Positions 11,402 to 44,920 of a stretch of 64,000 nt of DNA are shown here, piece by piece. The position numbers and the translations under genes were made by a program. Source of the stretch: Candidatus Woesebacteria bacterium RIFCSPLOWO2_01_FULL_44_24b (GTDB taxonomy: Bacteria; Patescibacteriota; Microgenomatia; UBA8517); the NCBI GenBank assembly GCA_001793235.1, contig MGHM01000014.1:3857-67856 (forward strand), in the 5' to 3' direction. Under the pieces are notes generated by a model. The model ran no database searches. It saw only the letters and a list, made by a program, of their open reading frames with translations, and was not told the DNA's origin. How positions within the stretch are numbered: the stretch's first letter is position 1; every line of letters starts with the position of its first letter.

Positions 11402-11402
11402 C

Positions 11403-13314: not shown

Positions 13315-13393
13315 GAAGCATATCTTTAGTATTTCACTTATTTGTACTTATAGTCGGTAAAGTGTATATTTACCTGAGGTCAAAACTCAGGAG

Positions 13394-18103: not shown

Positions 18104-19252
18104 CGGCCCCCAATCGGAGATCGGCATCACGTTATTTGCAATAAAGGCCAAAGAAAAGAGGTAAACCGGGATTATTATTATGGCCATAATAATTTTGAAC
18201 TCACGCGATGCGAGCTCTTTGGAAAAAGCTACGAAAATAAATGGCAATATTGGCAGAGCATAGCGTACAATGTCACGGTGCGAAACAAAAAATACACTTA
18301 CAATAAATATACCCGTAAACCAGGCAAGAACTGTCTGTTTTTTCTTTATGAGTTTAAGTAAGCCGAATAAGCACAACACATAAACAAAGATTATTTCTTC
18401 CAGCCAGTGTGTATTCACCCATGGTTGGGAGTAGTTAAAAATCTGAAATGGCGGAAATAACAGGTGAATATTGTCCCCTGAGTTAAAATAGGCTAAGAAG
18501 TTACCGAATTTTAGGTAATAAAAATAAAAAAGACTCAACAACGAGAGCGGAATCAGGATAATCGGGTAAGCTTTATATTCTATACTTTTCACCCATTTCA
18601 CGAAATTATGATTAGTGGCTAAACCGGCTAATTTTGGAATAATTAATGCTCCAATATATGCAATAAATAACAGTATTCCGGGAGATTTTGTTAGCTGCGC
18701 GACTACTCCCCATATTGCAGCCAGCCAGAATTGCTTTTTGCCGAAATGGTAGACCGAAGCAAGTATTGCGCCAACAAACAATGGTTCCGGGGAACCAACC
18801 GTACGCACTATGAGCCAACGAGCGGGGAATATAGAGAACACTGCCACAAGCCACAATGCGTCCTTTTTTGAAACATACCGCTTAATAAACATATAGAAGT
18901 AATAAATTGTGATGGTTGAGCCCGCTAGAGTGGCCAATAACATGCCCCAGGGGTACCCCACAAGAGAAGCAAAAAGCCTGATAATCATGGGATAAACTGG
19001 AAAATGGGCTGCGTAGTACTCTAAAGGGAGTGAGAAAGAAAAGTTTTCTGCGATGTAGGGGAGATTATATAGGCTTTTAGCGACTGCAATATAGAGTGGC
19101 CCGTCGTAGTTAGCGGCTATTATCTGCATACCCCCTTCAGGAATTTGGACACCAAGTACTTCCGGAGTTCTGGAGAAAAATGGGAACCACAGACAAACTA
19201 CAGGCACAACAGCCAGCGCTATCAAGTAGATTGCGAGCTTAAAGGTCTTCAT
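18095..19252 (-). CDS. polytopic membrane protein, possible GT-C-type glycosyltransferase
   Basis: 385 aa with about 11 TM helices. Divergently arranged 22 nt from the GT2 gene at 19275. Family is uncertain. Confidence 0.45.
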   Translation of the reverse strand: MKTFKLAIYLIALAVVPVVCLWFPFFSRTPEVLGVQIPEGGMQIIAANYDGPLYIAVAKSLYNLPYIAENFSFSLPLEYYAAHFPVYPMIIRLFASLVGYPWGMLLATLAGSTITIYYFYMFIKRYVSKKDALWLVAVFSIFPARWLIVRTVGSPEPLFVGAILASVYHFGKKQFWLAAIWGVVAQLTKSPGILLFIAYIGALIIPKLAGLATNHNFVKWVKSIEYKAYPIILIPLSLLSLFYFYYLKFGNFLAYFNSGDNIHLLFPPFQIFNYSQPWVNTHWLEEIIFVYVLCLFGLLKLIKKKQTVLAWFTGIFIVSVFFVSHRDIVRYALPILPFIFVAFSKELASREFKIIMAIIIIPVYLFSLAFIANNVMPISDWGPLL

Positions 19253-19274: not shown

Positions 19275-19976
19275 ATGGTGCTCACGAGTTTATCCGTATT
19301 TTTTCCAGCTTACAACGAGGAAGGCCGTATTGCAATGACCGTGGAGCATGCACTCAAAACTATCCCGAGAATTGCCAAAAAATGGGAAGTACTTTTAATT
19401 GATGATGGTTCATCCGACAGTACGGGCAAAATAATTGACAAACTTGCAAAAAACAAGAACGTACGGGCCATTCATCACATGATCAATAGAGGATATGGGG
19501 GTGCCTTTAAAAGCGGACTCTACGGCGCAAAGTATAGCTGGATAGCTTTTACAGATTCTGATGGGCAATTTGATTTTTCTGAAATTAAGAATTTCATAAA
19601 AAAACAAAAGGAGTCCAACGCCGACATAGTAATTGGGTACTACAAAAAACGTCAGGTCGGTAAAGTCAAAATAATCACCTCCAAAATGTGGGAATACCTG
19701 GTTTTTATACTGTTTGGCCTTAAAGTTCGGGATATTGATTGTGGTTTTAAGTTGATTTCTAAAAAAGTTGTTGACGGGATTCCTGACCTGGAAAGTGAGC
19801 GGGGGGCTTTTATTTCAAGCGAGTTTCTGATAAAGGCAAAAAAGAAAGGTTTTAAAATTGTAGAGATCCCGGTTACTCATTACCCGAGAGAAGTCGGAGT
19901 TGGAACCGGGCGCAACCTCAAGGTAATTGTTGGCAGTTTTAAAGATTTATTCAGACTTTGGGTAAAGTTACAGTAG
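19275..19976 (+). CDS. GT2 polyprenyl-phosphate hexose synthase (DPM1/GtrB/ArnC-like)
   Basis: VFFPAYNEEGRIAMTV...WEVLLIDDGSSDSTGKII...IHHMINRGYGGAFKSG...AFTDSDGQFD (DXD). About 230 aa with no TM domain. Confidence 0.8.
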   Translation: MVLTSLSVFFPAYNEEGRIAMTVEHALKTIPRIAKKWEVLLIDDGSSDSTGKIIDKLAKNKNVRAIHHMINRGYGGAFKSGLYGAKYSWIAFTDSDGQFDFSEIKNFIKKQKESNADIVIGYYKKRQVGKVKIITSKMWEYLVFILFGLKVRDIDCGFKLISKKVVDGIPDLESERGAFISSEFLIKAKKKGFKIVEIPVTHYPREVGVGTGRNLKVIVGSFKDLFRLWVKLQ

Positions 19977-19977
19977 C

Positions 19978-21519
19978 ATGCAGAATGTAGTAAGTAGACT
20001 GGGTGAATGGATTAAGAAAAACAAAGTTGAGTTTATAATTCTTACCGTAATTCTCATTTTGGGAGCGTTTTTGCGTCTCTTTAAGATTGACGAATATATG
20101 ACCTTTTTAGGTGATGAAGGCCGGGATGTAATAATCGTTCGGCGCTTCTTGGTTTATGGTGACATATTCTTAATTGGCCCTGGGACTTCAATTGGGAATA
20201 TGTATCTGGGGCCATTGTATTACTATTTGATGGCTCCGGTCTTGTGGCTCGGAAATTTCTCGCCCGTTGCGCCGGCGGCTATGATTGCGCTCCTGGGGGT
20301 GACGACTGTTGCCTTTGTTTGGTATATAGCCCGGGAGTGGTTTGGAAAAAATGCTGCCTTCATCGCTGCTTTACTTTATGCTATTGCCCCAACAGTAATT
20401 ATTTACTCCCGCTCTTCCTGGAACCCAAACATCATGCCGTTTTTCTCGTTGTTGTGCATTTTTGCCATCTGGCGGGTTGTTACAACTAAAAAACTTTTTT
20501 GGCTACCAATTCTTGGCATCTCTTATGCTTTCGTTTTACAGTCCCACTACCTGGGGTTGCTTTTAGCTCCAACTCTCGCCGTTTTTTGGCTGTATGCTTT
20601 CTGGCTATTTAGGAAAGATAAGAAATTAAGAAGCTATATACTATATACAATATTCGCTATACTACTTTTTGCAGGTTTAATGTCCCCGCTTGTGATCTTC
20701 GACTCTCGCCACGACTGGCGCAATTTTGATGCCATTAAGAAGTTTTTTACCGAGCGCCAGGCCACCGTTTCCGCACGACCATGGAACGCTTTTCCGAGCC
20801 TCTGGCCGCTAACGCAGGAAATTTCCGCGCGCCTCCTTGCAGGCAGAAATGAAATTTTAGGTTCGTGGGCGGCTCTTGCGGTTTTGGGTGGGGTCACACT
20901 TGTCATGAAAGAGGCAAGGAAGCTTAACAAGACCACTTTTCTTGCGTTTACACTTCTCATTCTGTGGCTTGCAACCGCTCTGGTCGGTTTAGGACTTTAT
21001 AAACAGGAAATTTATGATCATTATTACGGGTTTTTCTTTGCAGCCCCGTTTATTCTTTTGGGGGGTTTGGCGGGGCATTTGATAAATAAAGCCAAGATTC
21101 GCGGTTGGTGGATAGTGGGTTTTTTCCTAGTGTTTCTCGTTTATTTCAACTTTTTAGATAATCCGCTGAACTACCCACCCAACAGACAACTGGCGCGGAC
21201 CATGGAAGTCGCTCGAAAAATTGAAGTTGAGTCCGCGGGAAATAAATTTAATTTAGCCGTGATTGCTGAGCGAAATTATGAAGATGCTTATCAGTATTTC
21301 CTTGAGGCTTGGGGTACGGGAGTTACCGACATCGACCCGTTGAAATATCAAGAAACTATTACCAAGCAACTTTTCGTAGTTTGCGAGTTGTCCGAGGAGA
21401 AATGCGACCCGACACATAACTCAAAGACAGAAGTTGCGAATTTTGGCTGGAGTGAAATTGCAGAAAAATGGGAGATATCTGGGGTAATATTGTATAAGCT
21501 GGTGCATGTCGAAATCTAA
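19978..21519 (+). CDS. GT-C-type membrane glycosyltransferase-like protein (subfamily 2, GDEGRD motif)
   Basis: At least 11 TM helices. The loop-1 motif FLGDEGRDVIIVRRFLVYGDIFLIGPGTSIGNMYLGPLYYYLMAP is shared with the ORFs at 25483, 42494 and 45721. The C-terminal soluble domain is about 130 aa. It directly follows a DPM1-like GT2 gene. Confidence 0.6.
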   Translation: MQNVVSRLGEWIKKNKVEFIILTVILILGAFLRLFKIDEYMTFLGDEGRDVIIVRRFLVYGDIFLIGPGTSIGNMYLGPLYYYLMAPVLWLGNFSPVAPAAMIALLGVTTVAFVWYIAREWFGKNAAFIAALLYAIAPTVIIYSRSSWNPNIMPFFSLLCIFAIWRVVTTKKLFWLPILGISYAFVLQSHYLGLLLAPTLAVFWLYAFWLFRKDKKLRSYILYTIFAILLFAGLMSPLVIFDSRHDWRNFDAIKKFFTERQATVSARPWNAFPSLWPLTQEISARLLAGRNEILGSWAALAVLGGVTLVMKEARKLNKTTFLAFTLLILWLATALVGLGLYKQEIYDHYYGFFFAAPFILLGGLAGHLINKAKIRGWWIVGFFLVFLVYFNFLDNPLNYPPNRQLARTMEVARKIEVESAGNKFNLAVIAERNYEDAYQYFLEAWGTGVTDIDPLKYQETITKQLFVVCELSEEKCDPTHNSKTEVANFGWSEIAEKWEISGVILYKLVHVEI

Positions 21520-21549
21520 GAACAAAAGTGCTATTATACTCCGAATGTC

Positions 21550-22533
21550 ATGACGTACAAGCAGTCTTTGGAAATACTGGATAAAATCAAGGCGGCCAGG
21601 CGGGTTTTGGTTAATTGCCATCAAAGGCCGGACGTGGACTCTATTAGTAGCGCCCTTTCGATGTGTGTGGCACTCAAACAAATGGGCAAGGAAGTCAAGG
21701 TGATTTGCCCGGATGATAAACTCCCTGAACTAAGCTTTCTCTCCTGCTTTAATGAATTTGAGAAAATTGACTATAACACTTTTGATTTTTCCAAGTACGA
21801 TCTGTTTATGGTTCTCGACTCCGCTTCCCCGGAAGTTGTCACCGGGAGCAAAACCATACCCCTGCCGGAAATCGAGACAGTTGTTATTGACCACCATCAT
21901 ACAAGCATTGAGTTTGGAAAGATCAACTTGATAGATGCTGAGCGCTCTGCCACGACTGAGCTTCTTTATCTTCTTTTTGAGGATTGGAACATTGATATCA
22001 CCAAGGAACTTGCAACATCGCTTTTGACCGGAATTCTTGGGGATACTGGTGCATTCGAGTACCACAACACTACTCCAAGAACTCTCCAGATTGCAGCCGA
22101 CTTAATGAGCCTCGGGGCAGATAAAGATGGGATTCTTCTTAAGATATTCAGGAGCAAACAGATGAACCTTCTTAAGTTTTGGGGCAAGGTGCTTGATAAG
22201 CTTGAGGTTGACGCGAGTGGAAAGTTCACCTGGTGCGCAATTCCTTATAGTGTTTATAGTGCGTTGGGGGAGCCGCAAACCGCTCGCGAGTCCGCAAGTT
22301 CACTATTCAGCCGAATGATTGAAGGAACGGAGTTTGGCATTGTCATGCTTGAAGAGTCACCCGGGGAACTCAGGGCGTCATTTCGTGCCAGAAGCACGGG
22401 CTTTGATGTTTCAAAAATTGCGACAGCACTTGGAGGAGGTGGACATGCCGGTGCCGCAGGAGTAACAGTTATAAACGGCAGCTTTGGTGATTCTGTAAAG
22501 AAGGTTGTCGAAACTGCAAGAAGATTTGTATGA
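21550..22533 (+). CDS. DHH/DHHA1 phosphoesterase (NrnA-like nanoRNase / pAp phosphatase)
   Basis: DHH motifs CHQRPDVDSISS and VIDHHHTS, the GDTGAF motif, and the DHHA1 GGGGHAGAAG motif near the C-terminus. About 325 aa. Confidence 0.8.
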   Translation: MTYKQSLEILDKIKAARRVLVNCHQRPDVDSISSALSMCVALKQMGKEVKVICPDDKLPELSFLSCFNEFEKIDYNTFDFSKYDLFMVLDSASPEVVTGSKTIPLPEIETVVIDHHHTSIEFGKINLIDAERSATTELLYLLFEDWNIDITKELATSLLTGILGDTGAFEYHNTTPRTLQIAADLMSLGADKDGILLKIFRSKQMNLLKFWGKVLDKLEVDASGKFTWCAIPYSVYSALGEPQTARESASSLFSRMIEGTEFGIVMLEESPGELRASFRARSTGFDVSKIATALGGGGHAGAAGVTVINGSFGDSVKKVVETARRFV

Positions 22534-23510
22534 TTTACAAAGAATCCAAAGCCATACTTCAGTCTATTAAACAGGCTAAAAAAATATTAATCACAAGTCA
22601 TAAGGAGCCAGATGAAGATTCGACTGGGTCGATTCTAGCCCTTAATTTGGCGCTTAAGAAGATGGGGATTTCCTCTGGCTTAATTTGCAAAGATAAGGCT
22701 CCAGAGAATTTAGAATTTCTTCCAAATATTAAGAAAATTGAATTGGTTAATTTCAAAACATTTGACTTTTCTCGATATGATTTAATGATAATACTCGATT
22801 CTTCTTCTTGGGGAATGGTGGTGGGTAGCGAGCTGAAGGACAAAAGCCCGAATATCCCAACAATAGTGATTGATCATCACGCTTCGAACCAGGCATATGG
22901 CAAATTGAATCTGATAGATATAAATGCGACTTCGGTATGCGAGATAGTTTATAAAATATTGTTTGACTGGGGTGTAAAACTTGATAAAGACATCGCGGGT
23001 AATTTGTTAGCAGGCATAACTGGTGACACTGGAAGTTTTAGATATCCATTTGTGTCTGCAGAGACATTTGAAATTGCAGCTAAGTTAATGAAAGCCGGTG
23101 CCGATCGCGACAAAATAATTTACAACTTGCTTTTTAGTGTTGAGCTTAAGGAACTGAAGTATTTATCTGAAGTTTTGAAAGAGGCGACAATCGATAAAAA
23201 AAATAAAATTATTTGGGCAGCTATACCATACAGTAAGTATGTAAAGCTCGGCAAACCGGAAGGTTCCGGGTTTGCTGGTGCATTCTTTCAAACTGTAAAA
23301 GGCACTAAGATTGGTGTTTTTATGGTTGAGAAAGAAAAGGATGTTGTTGATGTTAGTTTTCGAGCAAGGGACAAAATTGACGTTTCTAAAATTTCTGTTT
23401 CTCTCGGCGGCGGCGGGCATAAAAAGGCGGCCGGTGTGACTATTAGAAGTATGAAATTTGAGGAAGCAGTGGAGCTGGTTCTTGCAACTGCAAGAAAATA
23501 TGTAAAATAA
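22530..23510 (+). CDS. DHH/DHHA1 phosphoesterase (NrnA-like), paralog 2
   Basis: SHKEPDEDSTGS, VIDHHASN, GDTGSF and GGGGHKKAAG. ATGA overlap with paralog 1. Confidence 0.8.
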   Translation: MIYKESKAILQSIKQAKKILITSHKEPDEDSTGSILALNLALKKMGISSGLICKDKAPENLEFLPNIKKIELVNFKTFDFSRYDLMIILDSSSWGMVVGSELKDKSPNIPTIVIDHHASNQAYGKLNLIDINATSVCEIVYKILFDWGVKLDKDIAGNLLAGITGDTGSFRYPFVSAETFEIAAKLMKAGADRDKIIYNLLFSVELKELKYLSEVLKEATIDKKNKIIWAAIPYSKYVKLGKPEGSGFAGAFFQTVKGTKIGVFMVEKEKDVVDVSFRARDKIDVSKISVSLGGGGHKKAAGVTIRSMKFEEAVELVLATARKYVK

Positions 23511-23527
23511 GCGATATAATTGTTCTA

Positions 23528-23923
23528 ATGAAGAGCAACAGGCTAACAGCGCAAATAATTAAGCCAATTGCGGAAGTTTTTGCTTTTACAATTGAGCCCA
23601 AGAATGCTTCAAGATGGATGCCCGATGTAGTAGCCGGGGATAGAAGCGACTGGCAGCTTAAAGCCGGGAGCACGTATAGGTTGCAATATAAAAACGGTGA
23701 GTGGAAAGATTTTGATGTAGTTGATTCAGATCTAAATAAGATCTTTGAACTCCAGTCACGGGATGGGAATTACCATATACGTTACTCCTTCAAACCAATA
23801 AATAGTTTTAAGACAGATATGGAATTTTTTGAGTGGGTTGATGATGGTGACATCGAGGTTCCCTTGACTAACCAAATCCTTACCAAGTTAAGGATGGCAA
23901 TAGAGCTCAAGAATATAAAATGA
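23528..23923 (+). CDS. hypothetical small protein (possibly SRPBCC/Bet v1-like fold)
   Basis: 131 aa with no TM segment. The alternating beta-like pattern and size suggest an SRPBCC fold. Weak. Confidence 0.3.
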   Translation: MKSNRLTAQIIKPIAEVFAFTIEPKNASRWMPDVVAGDRSDWQLKAGSTYRLQYKNGEWKDFDVVDSDLNKIFELQSRDGNYHIRYSFKPINSFKTDMEFFEWVDDGDIEVPLTNQILTKLRMAIELKNIK

Positions 23924-24555
23924 TAAATCCAAATTTTGTTATCGTTGGAGTAATTCTTCAGGTTGTCGGGAGCTATTCATATTTAGTTGACACCTTAAAG
24001 GGTAAAGTAAAACCCAATCGAGTATCCTGGCTTTTATGGTCTATTGCTCCATTGGTTGCCTTCGCCGCCGAGATTTCCCGAGGGGTTGGAATTCAGTCCT
24101 TAACAACATTCGTGGTAGGTTTTGTTCCGTTAATAATTTTTATCGCTTCGTTTGTTAACAAAAAATCTGAATGGCAACTGACACGTTTTGATATTATTTG
24201 TGGAGCACTGTCAACCCTAGGTATAATCCTTTGGTTTATTACAAAAGACGCGAACATTGCGATCTTGTTTGCGGTATTGGCAGATGGCTTGGCAGCCCTT
24301 CCGACAATAGTTAAGTCCTATGAGTACCCTGAATCTGAAAATTCAACCATATTTTTGTTTGGTGCAGTAAATGCGGCAATTGGCTTACTTGCAATCCAAA
24401 TTTGGAACTTTGAGCATTTCGCGTTCCCCTTATATCTTTTGGTAGTTAATTCTGTTCTTGTTCTTTTAATTAAGTATAAATTCGGCAAATCTAAGTTTCT
24501 TCTACCATTAGATTCATATATTAGAGAGATTTACGGGAAAAGAAATAGAATTTAA
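23920..24555 (+). CDS. integral membrane protein (5-6 TM)
   Basis: 211 aa and mostly hydrophobic helices. ATGA overlap with the upstream ORF. No motif. Confidence 0.4.
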   Translation: MINPNFVIVGVILQVVGSYSYLVDTLKGKVKPNRVSWLLWSIAPLVAFAAEISRGVGIQSLTTFVVGFVPLIIFIASFVNKKSEWQLTRFDIICGALSTLGIILWFITKDANIAILFAVLADGLAALPTIVKSYEYPESENSTIFLFGAVNAAIGLLAIQIWNFEHFAFPLYLLVVNSVLVLLIKYKFGKSKFLLPLDSYIREIYGKRNRI

Positions 24556-24560
24556 CTATA

Positions 24561-25553
24561 GTGAATTATCCAGAATCCCAGGCCATAAAGCAAAAGATTG
24601 ATTCCTCACAAAAAATCTTAGTGAATATGCACCACAATTCGGATGCGGACTCTGTGGGAAGTGCTGTTGCTATGGCGAGGGTACTTAAATATTTTAAGAA
24701 AGATGTAAAGATAATTGCTCCAACTGAAATCCCCAAGAATTTAGAGTTCTTGTTGACGGAACAAGCGGTCAATGTAGTTAATTTTAGTGAGTTTGATTTT
24801 TCTATTTATGATTTATTTATAACACTTGATTCTTCAAGCTTTAGTCGCGTTGCCGGCTCACACAGCGTAAAACAGCCCGAACTTTCACTGATAAATATTG
24901 ATCATCATGTGAGTAACCAAAAGTTTGGGGAAATAAACTTGGTTGTTCCTGATGCCGCCGCCAACTGCGAGGTTTTATTTTATTTATTTAAAGATTGGGG
25001 AGTGGAAATAAAAGACGCCGAGGAGGCTTTGCTTACCGGAATTATAGGAGACACAGGAGCTTTTCGCTTTCCTGAGGCTGGTGGGTCCACTTTTGAAGCC
25101 GCAAGTCAGCTTATGAAGTTTGCTGATAAAAATAAAATTATATTCAATTTATATCAGTCTTTTGAGGAAAATCATGTTATGGTTTGGAAGGGGATTCTTG
25201 ATAACTTAAAAATTGACCACGAGCACCGGTTTGTTTATTCATTTGTTCGAAAGGAAGTTTTGGAGAAATATGGCAAGCCCTTTAACGCCAAAAGCGAGCT
25301 TGCAGATATGATTTTCCAGTCAATTGAAGGTACTGACTTTGGCTTGGTCGGAGCCGAAGATGAAGGTTATATTTCGGTAAGTTTTAGAAGCAGGACAGGC
25401 GTGGACGTGAGCCGTCTTGCAGGAATGCTGGGTGGCGGCGGGCACGCGTGGGCAGCGGCAGCGAGGGTAGATGTAGTAAACTATGATAATGCGGTTGAGC
25501 AAATACTTGGAGAAGCTAGGGAGTTCGCTAAGGGCGGAAGTACTAAGCCATAA
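24561..25553 (+). CDS. DHH/DHHA1 phosphoesterase (NrnA-like), paralog 3
   Basis: MHHNSDADSVGS, NIDHHVSN, GDTGAF and GGGGHAWAAAA. Confidence 0.8.
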   Translation: MNYPESQAIKQKIDSSQKILVNMHHNSDADSVGSAVAMARVLKYFKKDVKIIAPTEIPKNLEFLLTEQAVNVVNFSEFDFSIYDLFITLDSSSFSRVAGSHSVKQPELSLINIDHHVSNQKFGEINLVVPDAAANCEVLFYLFKDWGVEIKDAEEALLTGIIGDTGAFRFPEAGGSTFEAASQLMKFADKNKIIFNLYQSFEENHVMVWKGILDNLKIDHEHRFVYSFVRKEVLEKYGKPFNAKSELADMIFQSIEGTDFGLVGAEDEGYISVSFRSRTGVDVSRLAGMLGGGGHAWAAAARVDVVNYDNAVEQILGEAREFAKGGSTKP

Positions 25554-27012
25554 ATTCGTATATCTTCTTCTTGGAGTAATTTTAGTTTTAGCCTTATTTA
25601 TCAGAGTTTATAACACTGGCAAAATTCTTGGTTTTTACTACGATCAAGGCCGAGACGCTTTGGAAATATGGGAACTGCTTCATAAAGGTGACGTTTTCCT
25701 CATTGGCCCGACAACCGGTATTGCCGGCATTTTTAGGGGGCCATATTATTACTACTTGATTGCGCCTCTATATTTACTCGGTGGGGGGGACCCGGTGCTT
25801 CCCGCAAATTTTCTCGCGTTTACTACTGTAATTGCCATCGCGTTAATTTATTATCTTGGCTTTAAGTTAAAAGACAGAACAACGGGGTTGTTTGCGGCTG
25901 CTATCGCCTCGTTTTCGTTTTATATAATGCTTGCATCCCGATGGCTGAGTAACCCCACGCCCATGCTATTACTCAGCATGTTGCTTCTTTGGGCACTTTT
26001 TGCAGTCAGTGAAGGAAAGAAATATGCTTGGATAGCGGTGTCGTTGCTGGCCGGGCTCTCCCTTTTCCACTTTGGCAGCTCCGGCGAGTTCTTCTATTTT
26101 CCAGCTATAGCTCTTTTTGCCGTTTGGCAAAAGAAACATTTTCCAAATGGGAAAATCATATTTTATTCAATAGTTGCCTTTGGCTTTACCGCAGCGCCTC
26201 TAATTTTATTCGATTTTAAGAATGACCATTTATTGTCAAGAAATATTTACTCATTTATCTTTGAAAAAGAAAGTTTTAAGACTAGTTTCATGCAAGTTCT
26301 GAGTGATCGCATTGACTTTTATCAATCAGTCTTTTGGGGTAGGTTATTTCCGGGTACAAGCAGATTAATTACTTTTAGTCTATTGACTGTAGGAGTTGGC
26401 TTTTTCTTGTATCTGCCTGATTTACTCAAAAATACGAAAGCTAAAATTCTAATGCTTATGTTGTTGTCCCCGATTGTAGGACTTTTGTTTTTCCAAGGAA
26501 ATGAAGGCAATATTTATGACTACTACATGACCGGATACTATTTGATATTTATATTACTTTTTGCGGTGATATTGGGTCATCTGTGGGGGAGTGTTGCAGG
26601 CAAGATCGTGGTTTTTATATTCTTTTATGCTTTCTTTACCATGAACCTGCCGATTGTGAAGGCTAAAATTACCGACAATGCAGATGGGCCAAATACAATT
26701 CTGTTTAGAAATCAGAAGCAGGCAATTGAATGGGTGTATGGGGACGCGAAGGAAGAGTTTAATGTTGACGTTTATGTGCCGCCAGTCATTCCATATGCAT
26801 ATGATTATTTGTTCACTTGGTATGAAGGCAAACCCGAGTATTCGGGCAAAGTGAGCGACAATCGCGAATTGTTGTATACACTTTACGAGGAGGACCCGCC
26901 TCATCCGGAGAGACTGGAAGCCTGGCTTGCCCGCCAGAAGGGCATAGCCGAGGTGGAATATGCCCAAAAGTTTGGGGGTATTACAGTGGAGAGGAGAAAG
27001 AGGGTAAAATAG
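25483..27012 (+). CDS. GT-C-type membrane glycosyltransferase-like protein (subfamily 2)
   Basis: YYDQGRDALEIWELLHKGDVFLIGPTTGIAGIFRGPYYYYLIAP is a paralog of the 19978 motif. More than 10 TM helices. The start is uncertain: the ATG at 25483 overlaps the upstream gene by 71 nt. Confidence 0.55.
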   Translation: MIMRLSKYLEKLGSSLRAEVLSHKFVYLLLGVILVLALFIRVYNTGKILGFYYDQGRDALEIWELLHKGDVFLIGPTTGIAGIFRGPYYYYLIAPLYLLGGGDPVLPANFLAFTTVIAIALIYYLGFKLKDRTTGLFAAAIASFSFYIMLASRWLSNPTPMLLLSMLLLWALFAVSEGKKYAWIAVSLLAGLSLFHFGSSGEFFYFPAIALFAVWQKKHFPNGKIIFYSIVAFGFTAAPLILFDFKNDHLLSRNIYSFIFEKESFKTSFMQVLSDRIDFYQSVFWGRLFPGTSRLITFSLLTVGVGFFLYLPDLLKNTKAKILMLMLLSPIVGLLFFQGNEGNIYDYYMTGYYLIFILLFAVILGHLWGSVAGKIVVFIFFYAFFTMNLPIVKAKITDNADGPNTILFRNQKQAIEWVYGDAKEEFNVDVYVPPVIPYAYDYLFTWYEGKPEYSGKVSDNRELLYTLYEEDPPHPERLEAWLARQKGIAEVEYAQKFGGITVERRKRVK

Positions 27013-27015
27013 GGC

Positions 27016-27597
27016 ATGGCGAAGATTACAAGGCCTGCTCCCAAAAGAGCGATTCCACTTGAGGCGAAGCTAGTGTTTAAAGGCATTATTTATGAAGTTT
27101 ACCACTGGGAACAAGAGCTCTTTGATGGCACGAAGACCACTTTTGAAATGCTCAAACGCCCGGATACGGTTGAGATAATACCAATTACAAATGAAGGCAA
27201 AATCTTGATAAATTATGAGGAGCAGTCTGGCCTTGCACCGTTTATTTGTGTTCCTGGTGGGCGAGTGGATTATGGCGAAGACCCTGAGGCTGCAGCTAAA
27301 AGGGAGTTGTTGGAGGAGACCGGTTATGAAACCCATGACTTAGTATTGTGGAATGCAGCTCAACCCATGGAAAAGATTGATTGGGCGATATATATTTTTA
27401 TAGGTAAAAATTGCACAAAAGTTAATGATCCGACGTTGGAAGCGGGGGAGAAAATAGGAACGAAAGAAGTAAGTTTTGAAGAATTTGTGGAAATAGTACA
27501 GGATGATAATTTTCGAGACGAAGAAATATCACTAAGGATTTTGAAAGCGAAAGATAAGGGTAAACTAGATGAAATTAAAAGACTGTTTTTTGGTTAA
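27016..27597 (+). CDS. NUDIX hydrolase
   Basis: Nudix box GGRVDYGEDPEAAAKRELLEETGYE (Gx5Ex7REUxEExGU). Confidence 0.8.
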   Translation: MAKITRPAPKRAIPLEAKLVFKGIIYEVYHWEQELFDGTKTTFEMLKRPDTVEIIPITNEGKILINYEEQSGLAPFICVPGGRVDYGEDPEAAAKRELLEETGYETHDLVLWNAAQPMEKIDWAIYIFIGKNCTKVNDPTLEAGEKIGTKEVSFEEFVEIVQDDNFRDEEISLRILKAKDKGKLDEIKRLFFG

Positions 27598-28320
27598 ATG
27601 AGAAATCCATATCTGTCTATTATAATCCCGGCGCATAATGAGGAGCGGAGGCTCCCTAAGGCTTTTCTTGCAATTGACGATTTTTTGAAAGGGCAGAAAT
27701 ATGCGGCGGAGGTTATAGTTGTAGAAAACGGCAGTCATGATGCTACCTCACAGGTAACTAGAAAGTTTGCCAAAAAATACAAATATATAAAACTTATTGA
27801 GGTTAGCACGCGTGGCAAAGGGCTTGCCGTAAAAGCCGGCATGCTTGCGGCAAAAGGGGAGTATAGGTTTATTTGCGATGCGGATTTATCGATGCCCATA
27901 GAAGAATTGCCTAAGTTTTTGCCTCCGGAGACAAAAGGTGTGGATGTTGCGATTGGAGTGAGGGAGGGGAAAGGGGCAAATAGAGTCGGCGAGCCCTTCA
28001 AGCGGCACCTAGTGGGTAGAGCTTTTAATTTGATTATTAAGCTGACTATTTTGCCAAGTTTTGAAGACACCCAATGCGGGTTTAAGATGTTTACAGCTGG
28101 TGCCGCAAAAGAGCTCTTTAGCATTCAGAAGTTGTCCGGAATTGGTTTTGATATAGAGCTTTTATATTTGGCTCGCAAGAAAAAATTAAAAGTAAAAGAA
28201 GTGCCAATCACTTGGTATTTTGATGCAGACAGCAGGATGAGGCTTATACAGGATTCCCTTAAAGCGCTTCTTGAAATCTGGCAAATCAGAAAAGCCTGGT
28301 GGACTGGGGGGTACAAGTGA
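27598..28320 (+). CDS. GT2 polyprenyl-phosphate hexose synthase (DPM1/GtrB-like)
   Basis: LSIIIPAHNEERRLPKAF...EVIVVENGSHDATSQV...FICDADLSMP...FEDTQCGFKMF. About 240 aa, soluble. TAAATG junction with the NUDIX gene. Confidence 0.8.
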   Translation: MRNPYLSIIIPAHNEERRLPKAFLAIDDFLKGQKYAAEVIVVENGSHDATSQVTRKFAKKYKYIKLIEVSTRGKGLAVKAGMLAAKGEYRFICDADLSMPIEELPKFLPPETKGVDVAIGVREGKGANRVGEPFKRHLVGRAFNLIIKLTILPSFEDTQCGFKMFTAGAAKELFSIQKLSGIGFDIELLYLARKKKLKVKEVPITWYFDADSRMRLIQDSLKALLEIWQIRKAWWTGGYK

Positions 28321-29834
28321 CCAAAAAGTGGACACGGACAATAGTCGGACTGGTTTTAATTCTTCTGTGCGCGTTTTTGTTAAGAATTTATCAGCTTAAT
28401 TTAATTCCGGTTTTTGTGGATGAAGCAATTTATGTCCGCTGGGCGCAAGTAATGCGAGCCGAGCCATCCTTGCGGTTTTTGCCGCTTTCGGACGGCAAGC
28501 AGCCCTTGTTTATGTGGGCAGTCATTCCTTTCTTCAAGTTTATTGCTGATCCCTTGATAGCGGGGAGGGTAGTGTCTGTGTTAACTGGTCTTGGCACGAC
28601 GGCGGGCGTTGCGGCACTAGGCTACCTTTTATTTAAATCAAGAAAAGTGGCGCTCTTGGCTTCTCTACTCTATGCCCTATCCCCTTTCGCGGTGTTTTTT
28701 GACAGGATGGCACTCGTTGACTCTATGCTTTCTTTTTTTGGCGTCTGGACTTTAGTTTTTTTAATATTGGCCACGAAAAAGCTCAGTTTGGGTTTTGCCT
28801 TTTTAGCAGCTTTCGCCCTTGGAGGAGCATTATTGACCAAGTCGCCTGCCTTATTTATTGCACTCCTTTCCCCATTAGCCTTAGTTTTCACCCAAAAGGC
28901 TAAAGTAAAAAAGATTCAGAGTTTAAATTATTTTAAATCTATAGGGCTTCTTTTGGCTGTTTTCGCGGTTGCGTTCGCAATGTATAACATTCTTCGGCTT
29001 GGGGAAAATTTCCATATGATTGGTTCAAGAAACATGGACTATGTTTTCCCCTACAGCCGAATTTTAGAAAGTCCGCTGGACCCTTTATTGCCGTACCTGG
29101 ACAGGGCGGTTGAGTGGCTGGTAATTATGGGACCAGTTGCACTTTTGGGGCTCGCTGCCACTGGTTTTTTTGGCAATTTCCGGAAATACAAAATCGAAGT
29201 GTTGGTACTTTTTGCTTTTGCGGCTTTACCCATAGTTGTTCAAGCCGAGTACGCCCGGGTTTTTACTTCCAGGTACATTTTTTTTACACTCCCTGCCTTG
29301 GTGGTTCTTGCTGCTGCCAGTTTGAAAAAATTTAATAAACCTGCTGGTCTTTATGGAGTCTCTGTTTTGGTCGCCGTTTTTTTGGTGCAGTCACTTTTAT
29401 TTTATGTTGAGTTTTTCAAAAACCCAGAGAAAGCCAACTGGCCTGAGCATGATGGCTACCTTGCCGATTGGACTGCAGGGACCGGAATTAAGGAAGCAGC
29501 AGAAATTATAAAAGCCGCGCGTGATGTAAATCCGGGCAAAGATATCGTTGTGGGGACAGAGGGTTATTTTGGGACACTTCCGGACGGCCTCCAGATTTAT
29601 CTTGAAAAAGAACCCAATATAACAGTAATCGGAGTGGGGCTTGATATAAGTCATGTTCCAGATAGCCTTTCGGAGTCGGCTAAGGCGGGTAATATTACTT
29701 ATTTGGTGGCCAACTCTTCCAGGCTAGCATTTGTACGGCCGTTTGAAGAATATGGCCTGAAAATCATAAAGTCTTGGGAAAAAGCAGAAAACCGGCTCGG
29801 CAAGCGGGATGTGTTTTATATGTTTGAATTATGA
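28299..29834 (+). CDS. GT-C-type membrane glycosyltransferase (PMT/ArnT-like, loop-1 DE motif)
   Basis: PVFVDEAIYVRWAQVM carries the DE motif. About 12 TM helices and a C-terminal soluble domain. The probable start is the GTG at 28317, which forms a GTGA overlap with the GT2 stop. Confidence 0.6.
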   Translation: MDWGVQVTKKWTRTIVGLVLILLCAFLLRIYQLNLIPVFVDEAIYVRWAQVMRAEPSLRFLPLSDGKQPLFMWAVIPFFKFIADPLIAGRVVSVLTGLGTTAGVAALGYLLFKSRKVALLASLLYALSPFAVFFDRMALVDSMLSFFGVWTLVFLILATKKLSLGFAFLAAFALGGALLTKSPALFIALLSPLALVFTQKAKVKKIQSLNYFKSIGLLLAVFAVAFAMYNILRLGENFHMIGSRNMDYVFPYSRILESPLDPLLPYLDRAVEWLVIMGPVALLGLAATGFFGNFRKYKIEVLVLFAFAALPIVVQAEYARVFTSRYIFFTLPALVVLAAASLKKFNKPAGLYGVSVLVAVFLVQSLLFYVEFFKNPEKANWPEHDGYLADWTAGTGIKEAAEIIKAARDVNPGKDIVVGTEGYFGTLPDGLQIYLEKEPNITVIGVGLDISHVPDSLSESAKAGNITYLVANSSRLAFVRPFEEYGLKIIKSWEKAENRLGKRDVFYMFEL

Positions 29835-30547
29835 CAACCCCCCACCTATCACTAGTAATCCCCGCCTACAACGAAGAGGGGATAATAAAAAGTAATTTAG
29901 AGAAAGTATTAAAATTTCTTTCTAAAAAGAGTTATTTGTGGGAGATAGTGGTTGTAGATGACGGCAGCCGTGATAATACCCCGGACATTGTTAATAGTTT
30001 AAAGAAAGTTAGACTTGTTAAATTACCGGAAAATATGGGTAAGGGTGCGGCGGTGAAAGCTGGCATGCTTAAAGCTCGTGGCAAGCTAATTATTTTTATG
30101 GACGCGGATTTGTCAGTTCCACTTAATTATATTGACGTCGTTGTGAGGGCGTTGCACAGTAGCGACGTGGCTATAGGCTCAAGGAGAGTGAAAGGGTCGG
30201 TCATCAAAAAACACCAACCATTCTTACGTGAAAATATGGGCAGGGTTTTTACCAAGTTGACCCAAATAATCATCGGGAGCAAGATTGCCGATTTTACCTG
30301 CGGGTTTAAAGGTTTTACGAAGGAGGCGGCAAGCAAGGTTTTTGCGCACGGCGTAATAGATCGCTGGGCTTATGATGCTGAAATTATTTTCTTGGCGGAA
30401 AAATTTGGGCTTAAAATTACTGAAGTTCCGGTTGAGTGGATAAACAGGGAAGAGACCAGAGTAAAAGTTGGGCGTGCCACAATTGAGTCGTTAATCGACT
30501 TGGTTAAGATCAGATTTTTTGGATTGGCGGGGAAGTATGAAGACTAA
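29831..30547 (+). CDS. GT2 polyprenyl-phosphate hexose synthase (DPM1/GtrB-like)
   Basis: LSLVIPAYNEEGIIKSNL...EIVVVDDGSRDNT...IIFMDADLSVP...IADFTCGFKGF. ATGA overlap with the upstream GT-C gene. Confidence 0.8.
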   Translation: MTTPHLSLVIPAYNEEGIIKSNLEKVLKFLSKKSYLWEIVVVDDGSRDNTPDIVNSLKKVRLVKLPENMGKGAAVKAGMLKARGKLIIFMDADLSVPLNYIDVVVRALHSSDVAIGSRRVKGSVIKKHQPFLRENMGRVFTKLTQIIIGSKIADFTCGFKGFTKEAASKVFAHGVIDRWAYDAEIIFLAEKFGLKITEVPVEWINREETRVKVGRATIESLIDLVKIRFFGLAGKYED

Positions 30548-32135
30548 AATACTGCTTCTTTTGCTGACAATTCCGGCAATTATCGCATTACTTAAACCGG
30601 GCTATTTCCCGATGCATGATGACATTCAGGGAATGCGGGTCTACCAGATGTATAAGTGCGTGTTAGACCTTCAAATCCCCTGCCGTTGGGTGCCCGATAT
30701 GGGCTTTGGTTATGGCTACCCGCAATTTAATTTCTATTCCCCCCTCCCCTATTATTTGATGGAAATTCCGGTCCTTTTTGGCGGCTCAATTCTTGCAAGC
30801 GTCAAACTTGGGTTTTTGGCAAGTCTGGTTCTCTCGGCGTGGAGCATGTATCTTCTGGGCTCTTTTTTGTGGGGCAAAAAAGGCGGGGTAATTAGTGCGC
30901 TTTTTTACACTTACGCACCATATAGGGCAGTGGATATTTATGTTCGGGGAGCAATGGGCGAAGCCTGGGCCTTTGTTTTTTTGCCACTGATTTTATTGTT
31001 TACTCTAAAGCCAAAGTCCACCATTCCCCTGGCACTATCGATCGCCGGATTATTCTTGACACACAACATAACAGTTATCATGTTTTCCCCCTTTTATGTT
31101 ACCTTTGTCCTCTTCTTTAGAAAAAATCACGGTAATGATTTAAAAAATATTTTGAAGTCAGGTATTTTGGGCTTTGCCCTATCTGCCTTTTTTACTCTGC
31201 CCGCTTTCTTGGAAAAAAATTATACCCATGTTGAGTCGGTCCTCATGGGTTATTTTAATTATCTCGCGCACTTTGTTGGAGTCGGTCAGCTATTTTTGTC
31301 CACTCACTGGGGCTATGGCGTATCCTCACTTGGGGAACTGGATGGGATGTCCTTATCGGTTGGAGTTCTGCACTGGAGCATTCCTCTTTTGGTTCTTATC
31401 CTTCTTTTTTACTTAAAGAAGATCGAGGAATTTCGCAAAGTTTTAATTTTCGTGATTCTGGGTTTTCTTGCACTATTTCTTATTCATCCAAGGTCTCAAT
31501 TTATCTGGGACAACGTTTCACTGCTTTCATATATCCAGTTTCCATGGCGGTTTCTGGGTATTGCCGTCTTTTGTTTTTCACTAGCCAGTGGAGCACTGAT
31601 TAAATTAACCAACAGAAAGCTGTTAATGGTTATAACAATCTTTGTAATTCTGATTCTTATGAACGGTTCGTTTTTCAAACCGGAGAGATATGTTTACATT
31701 ACTGATGGTGAAAAGTTTTCTGGGGACAGTTGGTTGAAACAACAAACAATAAGTATCTTGGATTATTTGCCGGCAGGAGCCCAGCACCCGCCGACTTCAC
31801 CGGCTTCAAATGGGCCGAAGTTTTCAGGCGAAGTGATTTCTGGCCAAAAGGGCACGAACTGGCAGACTTGGGAACTAAATGTATATGATGAAGACAATAA
31901 GCTTGAGCTTCCTCTGTTTTATTTTCCGGGTTGGGAAGTGAAAGTGGACGGGGAGCCAGTGAAAATTGACAGCGCCAACGAACTTGGTTTAATAACTGTT
32001 GATGTCCCGTCTGGCCAACACTTGGTTGAAGCCAGACTTAAAGATACAAATTTAAGATTAATCGCGAATTTAGTAAGCTTGATTGGTCTTGGTGCTCTAG
32101 TGTTATATAGAAAAATAAAATGGTTATCGCACTAA
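30537..32135 (+). CDS. polytopic membrane protein, GYFPMHDD-family (paralog 1 of 3), putative novel GT-C-like transferase
   Basis: Conserved blocks shared with the next two ORFs: GYFPMHDDIQGMRVY, QIPCRWVPDMGFGYG, FNFYSPLPYY, YAPYRAVDIYVRGAMGEA and QFPWRFLGIAVF. About 13 TM helices and a C-terminal beta-rich soluble domain of about 140 aa. The probable start is the ATG at 30537; the listed 30519 is a TTG. Confidence 0.55.
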   Translation: MKTKILLLLLTIPAIIALLKPGYFPMHDDIQGMRVYQMYKCVLDLQIPCRWVPDMGFGYGYPQFNFYSPLPYYLMEIPVLFGGSILASVKLGFLASLVLSAWSMYLLGSFLWGKKGGVISALFYTYAPYRAVDIYVRGAMGEAWAFVFLPLILLFTLKPKSTIPLALSIAGLFLTHNITVIMFSPFYVTFVLFFRKNHGNDLKNILKSGILGFALSAFFTLPAFLEKNYTHVESVLMGYFNYLAHFVGVGQLFLSTHWGYGVSSLGELDGMSLSVGVLHWSIPLLVLILLFYLKKIEEFRKVLIFVILGFLALFLIHPRSQFIWDNVSLLSYIQFPWRFLGIAVFCFSLASGALIKLTNRKLLMVITIFVILILMNGSFFKPERYVYITDGEKFSGDSWLKQQTISILDYLPAGAQHPPTSPASNGPKFSGEVISGQKGTNWQTWELNVYDEDNKLELPLFYFPGWEVKVDGEPVKIDSANELGLITVDVPSGQHLVEARLKDTNLRLIANLVSLIGLGALVLYRKIKWLSH

Positions 32136-33784
32136 TTATTTCGGTTCTGACAGCACTCAGGCTTTTTGGGCCTGGGTACTTTCCAATGCATGACGATCTT
32201 CAGGTAATGCGGCTATATGAACTGGAAAAATGCTTCGCGGACGGCCAAATCCCCTGCCGCTGGGTGCCGGACATGAATTTCGGTTTTGGCCAGGCAATGT
32301 TTAATTTTTATAGTACCTTGCCATATTATCTCGGGGTTCTTATTCGTATAGTTTTGCCAATTTCAATTCTCACCACTGTTAAGATTCTTTTTGCGATTAG
32401 TCTTGTCGGTGGCGCATTGGGGATGTATTCCCTCTCAAGAGAATTTTTCGGGCATAGGGGAGCGATTATTGCCTCAGCCCTGTACGCGCTTGCACCATAC
32501 AGAGCGGTTAACGTTTATGTACGGGGAGCCATGGCGGAATCTTTTTCACTTGCGATACTCCCCTTTTTGTGGCTTTCAATTTATAAGGTGATTAAGGAGC
32601 CCAATTTCAAAAATTCTGCATTTGTAGCCTTGGCAGTCTGTGCACTTCTTATGACTCACAATATCTCGACATTCGTGTATTTCGGTTTTACTGCCGTGTG
32701 GACTTTGTTTTGGCTTTTTCAGAAATGTAAAACCAAAAATCTCCGGGCGCTTATTTTTAGTTCAGTCTTGGGCGTGGCGTTGGCTGGCTTTTTCATAGTT
32801 CCGGTTGCTATTGAGCAAAGCCTTGTCCAAGGCGAGCTTTTTATTTCCGATTATTCTAATTATACCGGGCACTTTACTACATTAAACCAATTATTCATAA
32901 GCCGTTTTTGGGGCTATGGGGGCTCAATTTTTGGTGAGAACGACGGCATGGCTTTTCAAGTCGGCTGGCCGCATTGGTGGGCGGCAATTTTAGTTGGTAT
33001 TTCGGCGCTTTCTCAACTAACTCGAAAAAATAGACAGAGTATTATGGTTTTGGGGTTATTGGCACTTTCCTTATTTTCTTTGTTTATGACTCACAATAAA
33101 AGCACTTTCTTGTGGGAAACTCTTCCCATGATTGCCTTTGTTCAGTTTCCATGGCGGTTTCTGGGCATTGCCGTATTTTTGCTCTCACTTGCTTCCGGCG
33201 GAATTTCAAACTTTCCGGGAAAAGTCTTTAAAAAATTACTATTTATTGCTGTCGTTATTACGGCATTAGTTTTTAATTTCGCTTATTTTAAACATGAAAG
33301 AACATATGACTGGTTGACTGATGAAATCAAGCTTTCTGGAGCCGATTTACTTGTCCAACAAGGCGCAGCTGCGCAGGATTATTTACCCGTAACAGTTGAA
33401 AGCCCGCCTCTAAACACCGCACCGGGAAAGCCTGTTTTAGTTAACGGCGAGGCAGAGCTGCCCAATCTCACTAAAACATCCAGCACCTTTTTCTTTGATG
33501 CAAACGTATCCCGGGAATCTGAGGTTGATGTCCCCATAATTTATTTTCCTAACTGGGAGGTCTATTTACTTGAGGGCCAAGGCAAGCGAATTGATGCCGC
33601 TCCCAGTGAAATCGAGGGTTTGATTAGAATTAGTCTCCCTGCGGGTAAGCACATGGTTTATGGCAAATTCGTGAGTACTCCCGCAAGAATCTTGGGTAAT
33701 GCTTTAAGTGCTAGTGCCTTTTTCATTTTAATTGCCGGCGCTGTCATTACCAATAATAAAAGAAAGTTTCTGGGGCTTGAATGA
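32120..33784 (+). CDS. polytopic membrane protein, GYFPMHDD-family (paralog 2 of 3)
   Basis: GYFPMHDDLQVMRLY, QIPCRWVPDMNFGFG, FNFYSTLPYY, APYRAVNVYVRGAMAES and QFPWRFLGIAVF. Confidence 0.55.
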   Translation: MVIALIISVLTALRLFGPGYFPMHDDLQVMRLYELEKCFADGQIPCRWVPDMNFGFGQAMFNFYSTLPYYLGVLIRIVLPISILTTVKILFAISLVGGALGMYSLSREFFGHRGAIIASALYALAPYRAVNVYVRGAMAESFSLAILPFLWLSIYKVIKEPNFKNSAFVALAVCALLMTHNISTFVYFGFTAVWTLFWLFQKCKTKNLRALIFSSVLGVALAGFFIVPVAIEQSLVQGELFISDYSNYTGHFTTLNQLFISRFWGYGGSIFGENDGMAFQVGWPHWWAAILVGISALSQLTRKNRQSIMVLGLLALSLFSLFMTHNKSTFLWETLPMIAFVQFPWRFLGIAVFLLSLASGGISNFPGKVFKKLLFIAVVITALVFNFAYFKHERTYDWLTDEIKLSGADLLVQQGAAAQDYLPVTVESPPLNTAPGKPVLVNGEAELPNLTKTSSTFFFDANVSRESEVDVPIIYFPNWEVYLLEGQGKRIDAAPSEIEGLIRISLPAGKHMVYGKFVSTPARILGNALSASAFFILIAGAVITNNKRKFLGLE

Positions 33785-35779: not shown

Positions 35780-35816
35780 ACGATATTATATCACCAAGCT
35801 TTCATGCTACAATTTG

Positions 35817-44916: not shown

Positions 44917-44920
44917 GGTT

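Follow-up and report, generated by a model that had tools for sequence, protein, structure and literature searches.

Glycosyltransferase genes resembling polyprenyl-phosphate sugar synthases are paired with GT-C membrane transferase genes in a glycan cluster of a Candidatus Woesebacteria genome

We have analysed a 64 kb stretch of DNA from Candidatus Woesebacteria bacterium RIFCSPLOWO2_01_FULL_44_24b (contig MGHM01000014.1, positions 3,857 to 67,856), hereafter the window, in which about 58 genes were counted, almost all of them co-directional on the plus strand. At three places within it, a gene for a family 2 glycosyltransferase (GT2) devoid of transmembrane (TM) helices is directly followed by the gene of a large polytopic membrane protein. 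Our findings indicate that these pairs probably encode a polyprenyl-phosphate sugar synthase together with a membrane glycosyltransferase of the GT-C class, devoted to a two-step transmembrane glycosylation. As judged from the sequences, the GT2 would, on the cytoplasmic face, load polyprenyl (undecaprenyl) phosphate with one sugar taken from a nucleotide sugar, the lipid-linked monosaccharide would then be flipped across the membrane, and on the outer face the adjoining GT-C would pass the sugar on to an acceptor. The same multi-component logic underlies GtrABC, ArnC/ArnT, CsbB/GtcA/YfhO, GacI/J/K/L and Ppm1/Pmt (PMC8035078, PMC11127046). The mechanism class is therefore already well known, and what is gained here is breadth and testable detail rather than a new principle. 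No paper on these systems in the candidate phyla radiation (CPR, or Patescibacteria) was found in the literature searched, which is not proof that none exists; these uncultured bacteria, with their tiny genomes, live attached to other cells, and the chemistry of their envelopes is all but uncharted.

The three GT2 genes span 19275-19976 (233 aa), 27598-28320 (240 aa) and 29831-30547 (238 aa), all with a strong PF00535 match and no predicted TM helix, and the product of the same-strand gene located directly 3' of each is 505-532 aa long and has 10-12 hydrophobic segments. Numbering the pair members in order, these partners are GT-C1 (19978-21519, 513 aa, about 11 hydrophobic segments), GT-C2 (28317-29834) and GT-C3 (30537-32135), which follow GT2-1, GT2-2 and GT2-3, respectively. 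A first-pass annotation of the window had described three pairs of a GT2 of about 235 aa and a membrane protein, and the open reading frames are indeed as it described them, with a gap of a single nucleotide or overlaps at the junctions. In pair 1, the stop codon TAG (19974-19976) is separated by 1 nucleotide from the ATG at 19978. In pair 2, the GTG at 28317 lies over the TGA at 28318-28320 to form a GTGA overlap; GT-C2 could alternatively start at the in-frame GTG 28299. The members of pair 3 overlap by 11 nucleotides, from the ATG at 30537 to the GT2 stop codon TAA at 30545-30547. The same annotation had placed ATGA and GTGA overlaps inside two of the pairs; the GTGA overlap does occur within pair 2, but the ATGA overlap (29831-29834) joins GT-C2 to GT2-3, that is, cassette 2 to cassette 3. 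Its count of three cassettes holds for the pairs themselves but falls short of the whole, given that the window contains five DPM1-like GT2s (15750, 19275, 27598, 29831 and 59792) and 16 GT-C-like genes, 13 of them beyond the three partners. Cassette 3, likewise, includes the proposed pair but is larger than a simple pair, since its single GT2 (29831) precedes three tandem GT-C paralogues (30537, 32120 and 33781) sharing 29-39% identity. The two further paralogues, GT-C3b (32120-33784, plus strand, 38% identical to GT-C3) and GT-C3c (33781-35436, plus strand, 29-33% identity), were assigned by their PF10131 (PTPS_related) matches, full-length paralogy and their order in relatives.

Overall, the 16 GT-C-like genes take up 24.9 kb (39% of the bases), and are accompanied by 12 GT2s, 2 glycosyltransferases of family 4 (GT4s) and 2 Wzx-like flippases; RmlABCD is encoded at 6577-9892 in the same co-directional cluster. 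Promoter and terminator scans between 17000 and 36900 found no more elements than expected from shuffling and were uninformative on operon structure.

The type of the three GT2s was examined by comparison with PDB sequences and NCBIfam models, by a six-sequence MAFFT alignment including a PfDPMS fragment, and by all-versus-all comparison within the window. The best PDB match of GT2-1 was ArnC (1e-15), followed by GtrB and PfDPMS (residues 5-211), that of GT2-2 was PfDPMS (9e-24, residues 5-220), and GT2-3 matched PfDPMS (9e-16), GtrB (2e-14) and ArnC (1e-13). These alignments span residues ~5-215, the entire catalytic domain, whereas polymer-type GT2 structures align to the same three proteins over the first ~100 residues only, corresponding to the N-terminal nucleotide-binding half. 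The top NCBIfam models were ArnC, PgfS, PpgS, the haloarchaeal dolichyl-phosphate (Dol-P)-hexose transferase and AglJ, with ArnC heading the matches of GT2-1 and PgfS, ArnC and PpgS those of GT2-3. The GT2 at 44870, taken as a control, had TarS and chondroitin synthase as its best PDB matches, and the GT2s at 38910, 39815, 40705, 44014 and 56684 matched SunS-, rhamnosyltransferase- or MftF-type NCBIfam models. In addition, comparison within the window gave full-length alignments, at 25-35% identity, among the five DPM1-like GT2s; the remaining GT2s can be aligned to them at ~100 N-terminal residues only. The first-pass annotation had weighed the possibility that these GT2s might cluster with nucleotide-sugar-dependent polymer enzymes; instead, ArnC, GtrB and PfDPMS proved to be their best relatives, and the control GT2 behaved differently.

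In PfDPMS, the DXD motif is of the DADLQ type and comprises D89 and D91, with R117 and R131 assigned to the acceptor phosphate and R202 to the donor phosphate (PMC12690121). Both aspartates are present in the three GT2s, within DSDGQ in GT2-1 (D94-S-D96-G-Q98) and within DADLS in GT2-2 and GT2-3, where the glutamine is replaced by serine. According to the six-sequence alignment, in which small register shifts are possible, the equivalents of R117, R131 and R202 are R, R and D in GT2-2 and R, R and R in GT2-3. Beyond the catalytic domain, GtrB and ArnC carry a TM anchor of two helices after the juxtamembrane helices and form tetramers in which every protomer contributes two TM helices (PMC12690121). 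No hydrophobic segment corresponding either to such an anchor or to the 4-TM anchor of the PfDPMS type was found in GT2-1, GT2-2 or GT2-3, which stop directly after their C-terminal amphipathic segment, the one situated ahead of TM1 in GtrB and ArnC. Members without TM helices do exist in this group, such as human DPM1 and mycobacterial PpgS. On sequence grounds, the three GT2s belong to this TM-less subclass of polyprenyl-phosphate glycosyltransferases, and the lack of an anchor does not exclude them from it.

Concerning the membrane partners, GT-C enzymes are defined by 7-13 TM helices and a small extracytoplasmic domain after TM1 (PMC11127046). GT-C1 matched the Pfam family PMT_2 with 43.7 bits (cut-off 26.1), in addition to PMT and, weakly, STT3, and carries just after TM1 a FLGDeGRD motif (residues 43-50) that is kept in 71 orthologues. 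GT-C2 matched PF02366 (PMT) with 41.8 bits (cut-off 22.7) and PMT_2 with 33.8 bits, and displays in the same position a PMT-style DE motif, VDEAIY (residues 41-46), kept in 22 sequences. GT-C3 reached the YfhO family with 36.6 bits (cut-off 28.5) through its C-terminus only: the match covers 58 C-terminal residues, at profile positions 764-820 of the 835 of PF09586, and the full-length profile is not matched. By sequence, this protein is best called YfhO/PTPS_related-like, its paralogues matching PF10131. Since this C-terminal match was the only one obtained by sequence, GT-C3 was modelled with AlphaFold from a 32-sequence alignment. The model (pLDDT 86.8, pTM 0.90) consists of TM1 (residues 2-19), a loop of ~50 residues and a helical bundle; its C-terminal part is a beta-sandwich, after which comes a last TM helix. 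In Foldseek searches, its top 18 matches were all GT-C enzymes with probability 1.0, including AftA, ArnT, AglB, STT3, PglB, ALG12 and AftD. H27 and D28, followed by D29, are found after TM1, the first two being invariant in the family alignment, and the hidden Markov model of the GT-C3 family also picks up GT-C1 (E=7e-8). In all three partners, the motif kept among orthologues places acidic residues in the predicted first external loop. The GT-C nature that the first-pass annotation had attributed to the partners, with structure prediction and comparison with ArnT as the proposed check, is hence upheld by scores above the PMT_2 and PMT thresholds in GT-C1 and GT-C2, and by a model resembling GT-C enzymes, ArnT among them, in the case of GT-C3.

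A further GT-C-fold protein is encoded divergently from GT2-1 on the minus strand (18095-19252, 385 aa); it is membrane-only and has no Pfam match. Its family profile found nothing in the PDB, and hhalign against the GT-C3 family returned a probability of 3%, so that the fold was settled by AlphaFold and Foldseek only. The model (pLDDT 85.8, pTM 0.88) retrieved from the PDB 36 top matches that are all GT-C enzymes, comprising STT3, ArnT (TMq 0.53), ALG9, PglB, Pmt4, GPI-MT-I, ALG6 and PimE. Residues N48, D50 and G51, located after TM1, are invariant, the gene stands beside GT2-1 in 49 loci, and some homologues bear the Joint Genome Institute (JGI) name 'Gpi18-like mannosyltransferase'.

The strongest support for a functional relationship comes from other genomes. 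Scanning one genome per species, at least 585 loci with relatives of GT2-1 at 59-73% identity were found, of which 80 were fetched. In 71 of the 71 fetched loci with downstream DNA, GT2-1 is followed by an orthologue of GT-C1 (35-61% identity), the two genes nearly always overlapping or lying a few bases apart. A GT2-2/GT2-3-like gene precedes a GT-C2-type gene in 21 of 24 loci, and GT2-3 orthologues (59-62% identity) precede GT-C3 in all six metagenome-contig loci with downstream DNA, where the order GT2-3, GT-C3, GT-C3b, and then GT-C3c, is also kept. Shapirobacteria-like loci are compact and read GT2-1, GT-C1, GT2-2, GT-C2, GT-C3, one synthase thus standing before two different GT-Cs. The genes for synthase and GT-C are linked and inherited together, and module 1 (18095 on the minus strand, 19275 and 19978) is a core feature of Microgenomates. 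Complete relatives have genomes of 0.80-0.98 Mb, and GT2-1 has a 100% identical counterpart, annotated as 'hypothetical protein', in Candidatus Woesebacteria bacterium RIFCSPHIGHO2_01_FULL_44_21. Many public metagenome-assembled genomes (MAGs) with this locus are titled 'uncultured Gammaproteobacteria bacterium', and one 'Clostridia bacterium'; their gene content and synteny make these titles, seen among others at loci L006, L008 and L014, look like mislabels.

Natural fusions provide a second line of evidence. An exhaustive search with GT2-1 among 1.84 billion cluster representatives gave 645 matches at E<=1e-30, the best 150 of which were classed: 105 are TM-less, 16 have 2-5 TM helices, and in 29 the GT2 is joined to a domain of 6 or more TM helices. 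Eight of these fusions (P0364, P0367, P0376, P0377, P0393, P0422, P0442 and P0484) have as their membrane portion a full-length homologue of GT-C1, with 30-45% identity over ~500 residues, the eight representing at least 8 independent 50%-identity clusters; in all of them the C-terminus of the GT2 leads straight into TM1 of the GT-C and its FLGDEGRD motif. Pfam architectures comprised GT2+PMT_2 (P0367 and P0376), PMT_2+GT2 (P0380), GT2+YfhO (P0391) and GT87+GT2 (P0408). These arrangements support a functional coupling of GT2 and GT-C. Because the GT2s are devoid of the membrane anchor of GtrB and ArnC, and because single-chain relatives exist in which the GT2 continues into the GT-C at its cytoplasmic N-terminus, we infer that each TM-less GT2 works docked to the cytoplasmic N-terminal side of its translationally coupled partner. 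A GtrA domain is also fused to close relatives of GT2-1 in P0361, P0388 and P0409. Among these, P0388 unites GT2, GtrA and PMT_2, all three components of the system, in one chain of 923 aa, and P0409 is an ArnB/ArnC-like fusion of a DegT aminotransferase with GT2 and GtrA. Two other chains, P0157 and P0217, were considered as support for pair 3 and rejected, as their GT2 is rhamnosyltransferase-like (an orthologue of 44870) and not DPM1-like. Together with the gene couple formed by 44870 and a PMT_2 gene in the window, they represent a second kind of GT2/GT-C pairing without a DPM1-like GT2.

Several observations weigh against the pairing of a polyprenyl-phosphate sugar synthase with a GT-C. 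Within the window, three of the five DPM1-like GT2s are followed by a GT-C, a proportion with a binomial p of ~0.13 when 16 of ~58 genes are GT-C-like; the in-window adjacency is unremarkable alone, precisely because GT-C genes are so common there. This could suggest that the adjacency is incidental and stems from the packing of many glycosyltransferase genes into one cluster, an explanation that we find scarcely credible and that is effectively refuted by synteny and fusions, with adjacency in 71 of 71, 21 of 24 and 6 of 6 loci and fusions in at least 8 independent 50%-identity clusters. None of the three GT2s reaches an NCBIfam equivalog cut-off, and therefore the sugar cannot be named. In the six-sequence alignment, with the same reservation about register, GT2-1 has Y and K at the positions of R117 and R131, and R at that of R202. 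Searches with GT-C1, GT-C2 and a 22-sequence GT-C2 profile found no relevant sequence match in the PDB, so that their assignment as GT-Cs rests on Pfam profiles and motifs, and the Foldseek matches of GT-C3 have weak E-values of ~1e-3 and TM-scores of 0.38-0.46. There is no stand-alone GtrA gene in the window, the sole GtrA-like domain being fused to the GT2 at 15750. Finally, P0157 and P0217 (~830 aa) join to a GT-C3-type domain a rhamnosyltransferase-like GT2 (47-51% identical to that at 44870-45724), and the polymer-type GT2 at 44870 is followed in the window by a PMT_2 gene at 45721 (region 44870-47133), which indicates that a GT2 standing beside a GT-C need not be its donor synthase.

Some of these points would also fit a scheme in which the small GT2s are ordinary nucleotide-sugar glycosyltransferases, extending an oligosaccharide linked to undecaprenyl diphosphate (Und-PP) or another cytoplasmic acceptor, and the GT-Cs are polymerases, ligases or oligosaccharyltransferases that use Und-PP-glycans in place of Und-P-monosaccharides. 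The absence of TM helices from the three GT2s, the missing arginine equivalents in GT2-1, the rhamnosyltransferase-like pairings just described and the weak STT3 match of GT-C1 all speak for it. We nevertheless regard it as very unlikely, since polyprenyl-phosphate synthases are the best relatives of the GT2s over the full domain, polymer GT2s matching in the N-terminal half only, and since the fusion of GtrA to close relatives of GT2-1 is the architecture of a lipid-phosphate sugar synthase. Another proposal keeps the pairing of synthase and GT-C as mechanism and differs on the acceptor only: the modules might serve a protein O-glycosylation of the Ppm1/Pmt type, acting on secreted or surface proteins, for instance pilins, instead of on a wall polysaccharide. 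It agrees with the place of GT-C2 in the PMT family and its PMT-type DE motif, with DPMS being closest to GT2-2, and with the pilin-like genes, including a PA14 domain, at 742-2546. RmlABCD, the two Wzx flippases, the GT4s and the many polymer-type GT2s point rather to a polysaccharide product, and module 3 is YfhO-like, YfhO being known to act on teichoic acids (PMC8035078). The acceptor is not readable from sequence, and we hold O-glycosylation as the general function to be rather unlikely.

Under the preferred reading, that of a synthase coupled to a GT-C, the lipid-phosphate acceptor of the GT2s, the formation of complexes, the sugars, the final acceptors and the flippase are all inferred. 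Probable acceptors are a wall polymer containing rhamnose, surface proteins, or both. That the three cassettes have three different specificities, as claimed by the first-pass annotation, is a reasonable deduction rather than an established fact, given that the GT2s are 25-35% identical to each other and ~60-70% to their own orthologues, and that their partners fall in three GT-C subfamilies. Module 2 (27598/28317) would be most like Ppm1/Pmt, and in module 3 one synthase (29831) might feed the three tandem YfhO-like transferases (30537, 32120 and 33781). As for the flipping step, the Wzx-like genes 35661 and 58573 are candidate flippases, and the GtrA-like domain of the protein encoded at 15750 is, judging by its family, another candidate.

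Close parallels among known systems are found in Gram-positive multi-component arrangements such as CsbB/GtcA/YfhO of B. subtilis, S. aureus and Listeria, or CsdAB/CD/EF with CflA of L. lactis, in which the synthase gene lies beside that of the GT-C and several pairs coexist; three GT-A/GT-C pairs are present in B. subtilis, and CsdAB, CsdCD and CsdEF of L. lactis share one flippase (PMC8035078). Module 3 is of the YfhO type as well. Unlike the proteins described here, CsbB-type synthases carry C-terminal TM helices, and the window differs from both systems in having no stand-alone GtrA/GtcA, in placing one synthase before three GT-Cs, and in belonging to a CPR host with a genome of ~0.8-1 Mb. 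The three-step logic is shared with GtrA/GtrB/GtrC, responsible for O-antigen glucosylation in Shigella and Salmonella, and with ArnC/ArnT, which modifies lipid A with aminoarabinose. The alignments of GT2-1 and GT2-3 to ArnC and GtrB take in the juxtamembrane region as well as the catalytic domain, and GT-C1 falls in the PMT_2/ArnT-like Pfam family, but, apart from the TM helices of their tetramers, those systems are set apart by the lack of an equivalog match and of a lipopolysaccharide (LPS) context here.

Actinobacterial protein O-mannosylation by Ppm1/Pmt and the eukaryotic DPM1/PMT system resemble module 2, where GT2-2 is nearest to DPMS and GT-C2 is a PMT-family protein with the DE motif. 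Human DPM1 and the catalytic domain of mycobacterial Ppm1 have no TM helices and rely on a membrane partner. The identity is low, however, and GT-C2 has no match to solved Pmt sequences. A short GT2 that makes a polyprenyl-phosphate amino sugar, and a GT-C that decorates a wall polysaccharide, are also the components of PpgS (Rv3631)/Rv3779 of M. tuberculosis and of GacI/GacJ/GacL of S. pyogenes. PpgS requires a separate membrane protein, Rv3632. GacI depends in turn on the separate small membrane protein GacJ (PMC8035078), whereas no GacJ-like small membrane gene was recognised beside the GT2s in the window. The NCBIfam PpgS model spans GT2-3 at 4-206 of its 226 positions, but with 66 bits against a cut-off of 370. 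Finally, the synthesis of mycobacterial arabinan and mannan (Emb, Aft, PimE, Mpt) likewise involves many GT-Cs and few polyprenyl-phosphate donors, and AftA, AftD and PimE appeared among the structural matches; there is, nonetheless, no sequence orthology, and here the 16 GT-C-like genes are gathered in 64 kb of a tiny genome.

By analogy with that mycobacterial pathway, it is tempting to speculate that Microgenomates assemble the bulk of their main surface glycoconjugates on the far side of the membrane, through a relay of at least 16 GT-Cs supplied by only 4-5 polyprenyl-phosphate sugar donors, the donor-to-transferase ratio in the window being ~1:3-4. The natural fusions suggest that a TM-less synthase and its cognate GT-C would be obligate partners, in a complex that would anchor the synthase and hand over, or even flip, the lipid-linked sugar without a separate GtrA. 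We consider this extended scheme unlikely as it stands. The concentration of such functions is in any case unusual, both in density and in conservation, for a minimal CPR genome: glycosyltransferases and flippases together account for 63% of the 64 kb, in a window representing roughly 7% of a genome of ~0.8-1 Mb. That GT2-1 and its partner are conserved across at least 585 genomes at species level suggests a core surface glycan, which could matter for attachment to the host, and the GT2+GT-C and GT2+GtrA+GT-C fusions offer a concrete, testable model for the coupling of TM-less synthases to transferases.

Several neighbouring genes extend this picture. The plus-strand gene at 15750-16925 encodes a GT2 fused to a GtrA/DPMS-type 4-TM domain (PF00535 and PF04138), resembling a type-III DPMS; it has a DADFQH motif, keeps the equivalents of R117, R131 and R202, and is found upstream in most Woesebacteria loci. 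Just ahead of it, 15166-15747 encodes a Yip1-domain protein with 4 TM helices, kept there in some relatives (L005, L007, L043, L050 and L058). An additional PMT_2 GT-C with no GT2 of its own lies at 25483-27012 on the plus strand, a distant paralogue of GT-C1 with 25% full-length identity whose position after GT-C1 and the DHH genes is kept in Woesebacteria loci. The gene at 35661-37286 (plus strand; PF13440, 4e-50) encodes a Wzx/MOP-type flippase, a candidate exporter of the lipid-linked glycans of the cluster. The fifth DPM1-like GT2 (59792-60613, plus strand, 273 aa) has PfDPMS, GtrB and ArnC as best PDB matches; its DXD motif is degenerate (D-V-G), and it may be inactive or differ in metal or donor geometry. 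It is followed by a 645-aa protein (60610-62547) with ~3 hydrophobic segments rather than by a GT-C. Neither this protein nor the 554-aa product of 37249-38913, with ~11 hydrophobic segments, had a family match even at E<=10.

Between the glycosylation modules lie three DHH/DHHA1 (NrnA-like) paralogues (21550-22533, 22530-23510 and 24561-25553) with 38-41% mutual identity, and at least one DHH gene stands right after GT-C1 in most Woesebacteria loci. A NUDIX hydrolase gene at 27016-27597 ends one base before the start of GT2-2; its best NCBIfam model is NudE, far below the cut-off, although its presence in a glycan cluster is reminiscent of the GDP-mannose hydrolase WcaH. Further downstream, a run of PMT_2-type GT-Cs (47130, 50094, 51646, 53366 and 55036; region 47130-56694) shows 28-36% full-length identity, is interrupted by a weak GT87/ALG-like membrane protein (48763), and has none of its members beside a DPM1-like GT2. 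Near the start of the window, 742-3706 encodes three pilin-like proteins with N-terminal methylation motifs and, after them, a VWA-domain protein; one of the three carries a PA14 domain, and they are possible surface adhesins and candidate targets of glycosylation. At 11322-14470, the gene of a polysaccharide deacetylase is followed by those of a chitin-synthase-like GT2, which has 3 TM helices, and of a GH18 glycosidase, an arrangement that suggests the synthesis and trimming of a polymer resembling chitin or poly-N-acetylglucosamine (PNAG).

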